From Escherichia coli (GTDB lineage Bacteria; Pseudomonadota; Gammaproteobacteria; Enterobacterales; Enterobacteriaceae), in NCBI RefSeq assembly GCF_050320075.1, contig NZ_CP190018.1: a stretch of DNA of 64,000 nt; one strand, written 5' to 3'. The position numbers were made by a program. Shown here piece after piece: positions 21,001 to 24,000 of the stretch. How positions within the stretch are numbered: position 1 is the stretch's first letter; the number at the start of each line of letters is the position of its first letter.

Positions 21001-24000
21001 GACGAACGCGCCTGATGAAGATCCGGACGATTTAAGCACGGGATATTTCGGTTCAGCGTACCGGTCAGCGGAGAACTGGACGACGTCACTGCGAAGCAGT
21101 CATTTCAGCGCGGCAGCCCGTCGGGGGATTATTTCTGACAGATTTGTAGAAGCAATTTTGCAGTTTTGGCGCGAAAGGTGAGCGGGGAGTTTATTCATGG
21201 GGGATGTCCTTGTCCGTTCCCAGAGCAGACAACAAAAAACAAATGAGATCAAGGTAATATCTCTTCACTTGCGGGCTCGAACAGCAGGCAATTGCCAATA
21301 TAATAATCTGGCACAAGGGTGAAAAACGCGCACCGCATAAACCGTTGTTATTTCTTACAGATTAGCCGGATGCCTTAATAGACATCCGCGCCTTTTCGGT
21401 TATGGCTCGGAAATCTACGAACATCTACACAGTTTACTGGAACGTTTTGGGCCACAGCGTTCGCAGCACCGTCCTGATATGCCGTTCTGGCGATTATAAG
21501 TCGACGGATTCTGGCAAATAGACGATGATGATATGCTTAATGATGTTCAAAGAAATTAGGCCATTATTATATTATTGCTTGCATTTTCTTTCATTCCTAA
21601 AAGCACCCGCCATTAATCCCAGGCGCATTATGCAAAGGAAAATGATTAGGTAAACAATAAGATTTATAATCAGGAAAGGCGACTCACAATAAAACGGAAA
21701 GTCGCCTTAACATTGGTAAAATATGCCCTTTACTACTCCTGTATCATGAACGGCTCATCACATTTAAAGCTGACGTTGATCCAGACTACCATATATTGCC
21801 TTTATTTCATTTTTTACGCCTTCGCCACGGTACACCAAAGACGTATCGTATCGTTGATACTTATCTTCCCGTGCAGCACTGAACCAGTTAAAAGATCCGA
21901 CACACAGCAGTTCTTCATCCTCAATCACAATTTTGCTGTGGACACGATTAACCAATTTCGTAGCGATACCCATCTTATTGAGCTTTTCAACAGCATCATT
22001 CAGCAGATGTTGTTTCTCCTGACGCTTATCATCATCGACATGCGCTATATTGCAGTTTTTATCCGTCACCACGGTAATATCAATGCCCCGGGAACGGGCC
22101 AAAGCCATTGATGCCAGAAATCCCGTTTGCTCCACTTTTTGCCAAGATAACCAAGGGGAAATAATCGTTATTTTCTTTTGAGCTCCGGCAAGAGTCTTGT
22201 TCAAAAATCCATCATGCTGCTCCACACCATGCAGCGTTGAAATTTGTGTATGTGCGGAAATTAAATCCTGTCGTTTCTGAAACTCAAATTGCAACGCATT
22301 ATTATCTGAAGAAAAGAGATATTTTGCCAATAACCCTCGCGGCGAAAATGCGGGCTGCATCTCGATAAGGTCCATATCGCCAAATACCAGAAAACTATCT
22401 TTAGCGCGTGAGACAGCAACATTGAGGATACTGCTGTTGCTATCAAGAAACCTGCCATCTTCATGTTTTGAGTAGACAGGAGAAAAGAGAACAATCGCCC
22501 TTTCCGCCCCCTGCAAGGAGTGCACAGTCCCCACTGTCAGTGAACCCTGCTCGTCTTTGCCATTAATTTCCAGCTTACGCAATGACGTTTTGATAGCATT
22601 AACCTGCGCCGAAAATGGCGTCACAACACCAACAACTTTGTACAGTGGTTCCCCGTAATGGCGCTCTATATCATCCTTATGTGCCACCAGCCATGCTGCT
22701 ATTGTTTCAGCTTCAAGAGGGTTATAACGGCTCCCTCCATTTGGCTTCATGCCTCTACCATCAATTTGTAAATATCCCATTGCGGGGAAAATCGTCCCTT
22801 TTTCCATCCCTCTTTTAGGCTGCAACTTACCGTGATAGCAAAGTGAGTTACAGTAGCCGATGATGTTATTGAAACAGCGACGATGCTCATACAGATACAT
22901 TCCGCGCTCGAACTTGGGATCATACTGGTAGTGAGAGTTGAACTGGGCTACCTACATTACGCTGCCAGATGCTGCACTTTTTCCAGACCCATTTATTATC
23001 GAATACGGTGACCGCCTGAGCGGCCACCTTTAATCGTGGGCAGTTACACAGAATTATTTACAGGGCCTTGCTGGGAGTTCTTACACTTGCTCGCGATATT
23101 CAATTGGCCATTGTCAACAAGATGACGCAGGTTTTGATTGGTGATATCTATTTACGTCAGCAATGCGATGTGTTTTGGCTCGGCTATACCATCAGTCCCG
23201 CTTATACTCGCCAGGGATATGCAATTGAAGCAATTACCGCCACGATTGACTGGATAAAAGAGAACGGTTTTTCACTCACCAAAGCCGGTGTGAATCCGGA
23301 AAATACCCTTTCAAAAAAATTACTTATCAGGATTGGCTTCAATTTTTCGAGCATCGAAGATGAGTGAGCATATTTATGTTCTGGATTAAACAAAAGGAGA
23401 ATAATCTCCCGAAGGGAAAAGCCGATGAGGCCATTTCAGGCGTACTTCAACATGCATTCGTCAGTGTCATCTGCCTTTTCCAGTAAATGGGTTGGCATTC
23501 AATTTCCAAAGTACATCACACTTTTTCTACTGAAACATATCCCTCCTATAACTACGTGTTAATATTCGCTCCGTAAATACCTTTCAACTCAACCCGAAGC
23601 TTTGATGCTGGAGAATGTAATCATCCGATAATCAGTTCCCCGACCTTTTCAGGCCGGACTGATTATCAATGCGCCGAAATCGAATGCGGACACCGCGGTG
23701 TGTTTGCACGTTTTGCACATGATGATTAAATAGGTTCTTCAGTATGAATTTATCCCGTCAGGAACAACATACCTTACACGTTCTCGCTAAAGGTAGACGT
23801 ATTGCGCACGTCCGCGATTCTTCAGGCCGCGTCACTTCCGTTGAATGCTACAGCCGCGAAGGGCTGTTGCTGACCGACTGCACGCTCGCCGTCTTCAAAA
23901 AACTCAAAACCAAAAAACTTATCAAGCCCGTCAATGGCCAGCCCTATCGAATCAACACCACCGAGCTGAATAAAGTTCGCGCTCAGCTCGATAATCGCTA

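Follow-up and report, generated by a model that had tools for sequence, protein, structure and literature searches.

Genes at the locus

The window (the whole 64-kb stretch that we analysed, 64,000 nucleotides of contig NZ_CP190018.1) is the fim-nan-yjh-sgc region of Escherichia coli. Between positions 21300 and 24000 it is 100% identical to the chromosome of strain WP9-S17-ESBL-11. The RefSeq genes in that strain are nanC, nanM, nanS, a restriction-endonuclease fragment, yjhR, a GNAT fragment, topAI, yjhQ, yjhP and the sgc operon. G+C content is 0.39 to 0.47 across 21500 to 23500, compared to 0.51 to 0.56 further right. The coordinates of all features are collected in Table 1.

Table 1. Features in and around the yjhR remnant. 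Positions count from the first letter of the window.
Feature	Position	Strand	Details
nanS	20201-21181	+	open over 326 codons
ythB	21100-21198	-	small ORF of 32 codons, antisense to the 3' end of nanS
Gene of 216-aa HNH endonuclease, leftover	21170-21287		first ~30 bp and upstream region
Gene of phosphorothioated-DNA-binding HNH restriction endonuclease, remnant	21281-21527	+	first ~248 bp
yjhR pseudogene remnant	21764-22990	-	408 sense positions plus stop; residues 764-1171 of the intact 1171-aa YjhR/MkoC
Longest ORF within the yjhR remnant	21764-22900	-	378 aa; its first Met is internal in the ancestral protein (M794)
PLD-like nuclease domain	21869-22198	-	ORF residues 235-344; Pfam PLDc_2, E=2.1e-11
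AAA_12, second RecA lobe of SF1B helicase	22372-22888	-	ORF residues 5-176; Pfam, E=9.8e-21
In-frame nonsense Q776* (CAG to TAG)	22952-22954	-	lineage-specific; CAG in K-12-like and intact alleles
IS256-family scar	22992-23065	+	74 bp; last 43 bp of the transposase ORF (ending in FIIEYGDRLSGHL and the stop codon) plus terminal repeat
5'-truncated GNAT acetyltransferase fragment	23068-23367	+	99-aa ORF abutting the IS end; first gene on the island side
topAI-yjhQ-yjhP operon	23744-25362	+	directly past the junction; topAI is the YjhX toxin
yjhQ	24013-24564	+	open ORF
yjhP	24616-25362	+	open ORF

Several annotations of the neighbouring genes deserve a remark. The window's nanS is colinear with the intact nanS of strain N1420. 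PGAP tags the gene 'sialate O-acetylesterase, incomplete, missing C-terminus' in WP9-S17-ESBL-11 and in K-12-like genomes, a label that looks like an annotation artefact. The small ORF ythB appears as 'protein YthB' in K-12-like RefSeq records. On the other side of the junction, PGAP calls both yjhQ and yjhP disrupted in WP9-S17-ESBL-11, and it lists the 99-aa GNAT fragment as an ordinary 'GNAT family N-acetyltransferase'. The open yjhQ and yjhP of the window may mean that it stems from another strain, or that the gene calls differ.

Two intact genes lie between nanS and yjhR in N1420 (L007 5803-7462), one for a 216-aa HNH endonuclease and the other for a 290-aa phosphorothioated-DNA-binding HNH restriction endonuclease. 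In the window, only the start of each gene is left. The second remnant is 89.5% identical to L007 6610-6857, which lies inside the intact 290-aa gene, and PGAP calls it frameshifted and missing its C-terminus. This remnant and the yjhR relic belong to one decayed defence cluster.

The 378-aa open reading frame

The preliminary description of this DNA reported SF1-helicase C-terminal motifs followed by an HKD-type motif, and the absence of the N-terminal ATPase core. Both statements hold, and the Pfam matches to the two domains (Table 1) are far stronger than chance would give. The helicase part precedes the PLD nuclease part within one reading frame. The AAA_12 region contains the motif IV-like sequence YLYEHRRC and two further helicase motifs. 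In the numbering of the intact protein the three motifs are found at 795-802, 918-927 and 952-961. We take them to be motifs IV to VI, naming them from general knowledge of Upf1-like helicases. A Pfam scan and a motif comparison with the intact orthologue, which has all three features, found no AAA_11, Walker A or Walker B in the ORF.

The nuclease part carries a single PLDc active-site motif per chain, at ORF residues 317-341 (Pfam, E=6.8e-07). H321, K323, D328, G335, S336 and N338 are invariant across an alignment of 29 homologues; hence the HxK(x)4D(x)6GSxN signature of the ORF is intact. An AlphaFold model of the ORF, built on the same alignment, has a pLDDT of 88.5 and a pTM of 0.88. Compared to the PDB with Foldseek, the first half of the model resembles Upf1, Dna2, IGHMBP2 and Sen1/SETX, and the second half resembles Nuc, NucT and Zucchini.

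One earlier statement has to be corrected. The upstream DNA was said not to continue the frame. In fact homology in this frame extends a further 30 codons upstream (22901-22990), straight through the TAG, up to 22991/22992. The translation of these codons has homology to longer relatives, P0002 among them. The yjhR remnant is longer than its longest ORF, and RefSeq already treats it as a pseudogene (the PGAP call for 21764-23005 is 'helicase YjhR, internal stop, missing N-terminus').

The full-length protein and its family

An intact yjhR occupies the same locus in strain WL297. It is 3516 bp long, uninterrupted, encodes 1171 aa and is annotated 'helicase YjhR' in RefSeq. An intact yjhR at the same position, after nanS and a restriction-endonuclease remnant, is also present in 2013C-4282, N1420 and R32_14_1F. 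The window is colinear with these 3516-bp genes (loci L005, L007, L008 and L011) over their final 1227 bp only. Against the intact yjhR of WL297, the remnant is 97.9% identical and colinear to 22991. It contains the RecA2 lobe with helicase motifs IV to VI, a linker and the PLD nuclease domain.

The Pfam architecture of intact YjhR is AAA_11 (273-458) plus AAA_12 plus PLDc_2. The protein begins with an N-terminal domain of about 270 residues, continues with an Upf1-like SF1B helicase and ends with a single-HKD PLD nuclease (1114-1132; HKD motif at 1114-1121). Walker A (GPPGTGKT) is found at 294-301, DEAGQ at 695-701, motif III at 719-726 and motifs IV to VI at 795-961. A homologue from Pseudochrobactrum has the same three Pfam domains in 1167 aa.

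The large protein search gave no entry longer than about 660 aa, and a full length of about 660 aa, which this suggested, was dropped; the true length is about 1170 aa. Two of the longer entries are explained by their DNA. P0022 is a contig-end fragment, as inspection of the DNA showed, and P0076 (658 aa) results from a mis-called start inside the open 1167-codon frame of Pseudochrobactrum.

Many related database entries are 330 to 400 aa long and some are named as whole proteins, for example, P0007 (384 aa, 'PLD-like domain-containing protein') and P0008 (397 aa, 'Nuclease NucT'). Such entries would be expected if the ORF were a complete, naturally short helicase-C/PLD protein. The short E. 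coli entries, however, fit truncated alleles: 397 aa probably corresponds to the ORF read from M775, and 338 aa to the frameshift allele of K-12. The longer entries that were checked are the fragment and the mis-called start just mentioned. Furthermore, homology runs upstream of the ORF through the stop codon and ends at the IS scar, and the intact orthologue sits at the same locus. The preliminary description would have taken full-length homologues of the size of the ORF as the mark of a complete protein; the homologues found, with 1171 and 1167 aa, are three times longer. We give a naturally short protein a negligible probability.

The family to which the protein belongs is clear from profile comparisons. 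The ORF matches the PADLOC profile of MkoC, the type II Mokosh protein (PDLC03924), with E=1.2e-164 and 548 bits, and ORF residues 1-376 align to profile positions 771-1135 of 1136. This match, together with the intact 1171-aa orthologue at the same locus, bears out the earlier suggestion that the ORF is the decayed remnant of a defence gene. Other helicase-nuclease defence systems could in principle have left a similar remnant, namely type I Mokosh (MkoA/MkoB), DISARM (DrmC), PLuB or ProA. The ORF does match MkoA (1.6e-18), MkoB (6.5e-14) and DrmC (3.6e-5), there is a weak, partial match to PDC-S37, and the NCBIfam PLuB helicase-like protein and ProA are also hit. Yet these matches are domain-level, with E-values from 1e-5 to 1e-18, and far under the curated cut-offs, whereas the MkoC match runs end to end across the retained part. 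The 1167-aa Pseudochrobactrum relative spans the whole MkoC profile (positions 5-1135 of 1136, 1299 bits). Hence an origin from one of these other systems can practically be dismissed.

Type II Mokosh is a single-gene system, MkoC, that has been shown experimentally to act against phages. Its defence is lost when either the ATP-binding site or the PLD active site is mutated, and defence has been shown for full-length systems only (Millman et al., bioRxiv 10.1101/2022.05.11.491447). Among the papers searched there was none on the mechanism of Mokosh. Neither a sequence search of PDB chains nor the Foldseek comparison turned up a solved Mokosh structure; the sequence search gave only Dna2, IGHMBP2 and SETX-like helicases at E~1e-4.

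The truncation point and the island border

Searching for full-length homologues and aligning them placed the truncation at 22991/22992. In a base-by-base comparison this breakpoint corresponds to yjhR codon 763/764. It cuts the helicase after motif III and ahead of motif IV. Residues 1-763 are deleted, and with them the N-terminal domain, Walker A, Walker B/DEAGQ, motif III and the start codon; the promoter is also gone. Because the deleted residues include the ATP-binding site, the window copy is a remnant of a Mokosh member and not a functional member.

Immediately beyond the breakpoint lies the 74-bp IS256-family scar. It is present as a single copy and is the sole trace of that IS in the window. 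With the end of an annotated IS256-family transposase remnant from another place in E. coli (L006 4001-4075) the scar shares 98.7% identity, and with the end of a near-full-length transposase gene of this family (L010) about 81%. No Pfam family matched the 50-aa tail of the IS256 transposase, and a plasmid search with a longer probe hit only an adjacent IS3 element. The assignment to the IS256 family therefore rests on the RefSeq annotation of the matching copies. The GNAT gene that follows is damaged as well. It is without its first third and covers only positions 52-138 of 138 of the Pfam profile Acetyltransf_3.

The remnant was earlier suggested to lie at the edge of an accessory region, and the position of leuX in another strain bears this out. 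In the goat strain R32_14_1F, 304 bp separate the start of the intact yjhR from tRNA-Leu(CAA), that is, leuX, and next come the core genes ahr and idnK. WL297 and N1420 have different islands on the far side of yjhR. In the window strain there are more than 49 kb of island DNA to the right. Because of these three observations we place the break at the distal border of a leuX-associated island, a border inferred from R32_14_1F. No tRNA was found in the 64-kb window, where leuX was sought. In R32_14_1F (L011 22289-22676) no island separates yjhR from leuX, presumably the ancestral, island-free configuration.

Read from the scar, the order of events would be IS insertion, then deletion. First, an IS256-family element would have landed in or next to the GNAT gene, where the leuX-integrated island has its distal border. 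A deletion from inside this element into yjhR codon 763 would then have taken away the greater part of the IS and the DNA between it and yjhR, together with the promoter and codons 1-763 of yjhR. What is left is a relic with the RecA2 lobe and the nuclease, devoid of an ATP-binding site.

Decay after truncation

To place the truncated allele in the population we used 5426 complete E. coli genomes. The 3' 1227 bp of yjhR are present in 1729 of them, and the exact junction between yjhR and the IS256 scar seen in the window is present in 1282. The 5' 2288 bp are found in only 13; these rare strains keep an intact yjhR, which could be used for functional work.

Truncated copies have continued to change. 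A K-12-like genome has the same junction and no TAG, but carries a 1-bp deletion at window position 22798 that leaves a 338-aa ORF. In other strains IS5, ISEc52, IS66 or IS1 has inserted within the yjhR remnant; in Ecol_743, IS66 splits the helicase part from the PLD part.

Substitutions in the 408 shared codons were counted with the Nei-Gojobori method. The two truncated alleles (window and K-12-like) have a dN/dS of 0.74, with 8 non-synonymous and 3 synonymous changes in addition to 1 nonsense mutation and 1 frameshift. Between the intact alleles of WL297 and N1420, dN/dS is 0.11 (27 non-synonymous versus 61 synonymous changes). The contrast between truncated and intact alleles gives p=0.015 in Fisher's test, on small counts (11 substitutions between the truncated alleles). 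The same ratio taken against the closest intact allele is only 0.35, and half of the changes behind it belong to the intact lineage. Polarising the substitutions with N1420 as an outgroup left too few on single branches for a firm conclusion. The direction of dN/dS is what a pseudogene would predict, although the numbers are small. Since its truncation the relic has drifted neutrally, gaining Q776* here, a 1-bp deletion in K-12 and IS insertions elsewhere.

We put the probability at about 0.93 that the ORF is what survives, the 3' third, of a yjhR gene that once encoded a type II Mokosh protein (MkoC) of 1171 residues, was truncated by an IS-associated deletion and is now a relic. Such a relic presumably no longer provides defence. 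As far as sequence alone can tell, it may possibly retain residual nuclease activity, with the PLD motif and the 378-codon ORF intact, but none of the results speaks in favour of a residual function.

The intact motif raises the question of whether the truncated ORF is kept as a working stand-alone protein, RecA2-like plus PLD, with a new promoter in the IS scar or in island DNA. It could serve as a NucT-like nuclease, a decoy or a regulator. All HKD motif residues are intact, the predicted model folds confidently as two domains, and the PLD-containing part is open in both the window and the K-12 allele, over 378 and 338 codons. The relic is also common: roughly one in four to one in three complete E. 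coli genomes carry it. At a divergence of about 1%, however, an open ORF is the chance expectation, and the high frequency follows from a single junction that is inherited vertically. The dN/dS of about 0.74 between the truncated alleles, together with the nonsense mutation and the frameshift, speaks against a protein under maintenance, and so does the splitting of the remnant by IS elements in several strains. Upstream of the ORF on the minus strand we found no match to a sigma-70-like promoter. Finally, Mokosh defence requires the ATP-binding site (Millman et al., bioRxiv 10.1101/2022.05.11.491447). We therefore consider a maintained stand-alone protein improbable.

Very improbable, in our estimate, is that the relic is expressed from island or IS-scar DNA and retains a role, either as an ATP-independent nuclease or as a dominant-negative partner against incoming full-length Mokosh. 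Such a role could account for the perfect PLD motif of both major alleles.

Implications

As a discovery, the decayed defence gene matters little. The locus is already labelled 'helicase YjhR, missing N-terminus' in RefSeq, and the link between YjhR and Mokosh has been published. What we add is an exact truncation point, the IS256 scar, how often intact and truncated alleles occur, the leuX context and a caution about K-12. The YjhR of K-12 has been used as 'a fused Mokosh' (Cury et al. 2022), and it is a 338-aa relic without the ATPase; the caution concerns defence-system finders and structural comparisons that rely on it. Neither K-12-type strains nor strains like that of the window should be counted as Mokosh-positive. 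The locus also provides a worked example of how IS-associated deletions wear down a small defence cluster (an HNH endonuclease, a phosphorothioate-dependent restriction enzyme and Mokosh) next to the hot spot of integration at leuX.

Comparison with known systems

The closest known system is type II Mokosh itself. MkoC, the intact orthologue and the window remnant have the same domain order, an Upf1-like helicase followed by a PLD nuclease in one polypeptide. Compared to MkoC, the window copy is without the N-terminal domain, Walker A and B, motif III, the start codon and the promoter, and it has an extra nonsense codon.

The yjhR of E. coli K-12, an annotated pseudogene, is found at the same locus with the same junction of yjhR, IS256 scar and GNAT, at 99% DNA identity. 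The two alleles differ in how they decayed. The K-12 copy has the 1-bp deletion, no TAG and a 338-aa ORF, whereas the window allele has the TAG, no frameshift and a 378-aa ORF.

With the Upf1-like SF1B helicases (Upf1, IGHMBP2, Dna2, Sen1/SETX and MOV10L1) the ORF shares the RecA2 fold and motifs IV to VI, at a Foldseek E-value of about 1e-9 and about 20% identity. The link from YjhR/Mokosh to Upf1 and MOV10L1 has already been drawn in the literature. Unlike in these helicases, only the second RecA lobe survives in the window. Intact YjhR differs from them too: its Walker A and Walker B are about 390 residues apart, and a nuclease is fused to the helicase.

The ORF has its fold and its one HxK(x)4D(x)6GSxN motif in common with the single-HKD PLD nucleases (Nuc of Salmonella pKM101, NucT of H. 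pylori and Zucchini/PLD6). Target-normalised Foldseek TM scores of the ORF model are 0.77 for Nuc (1byr), 0.69-0.71 for NucT (6ehi) and 0.58 for Zucchini (4ggj). In contrast to these free-standing nucleases, the PLD domain here is fused to a helicase, and sequence identity is 15-16%. By analogy with Nuc and Zucchini, two copies of the PLD domain would have to come together to make a single active site, which would then cleave nucleic acid.
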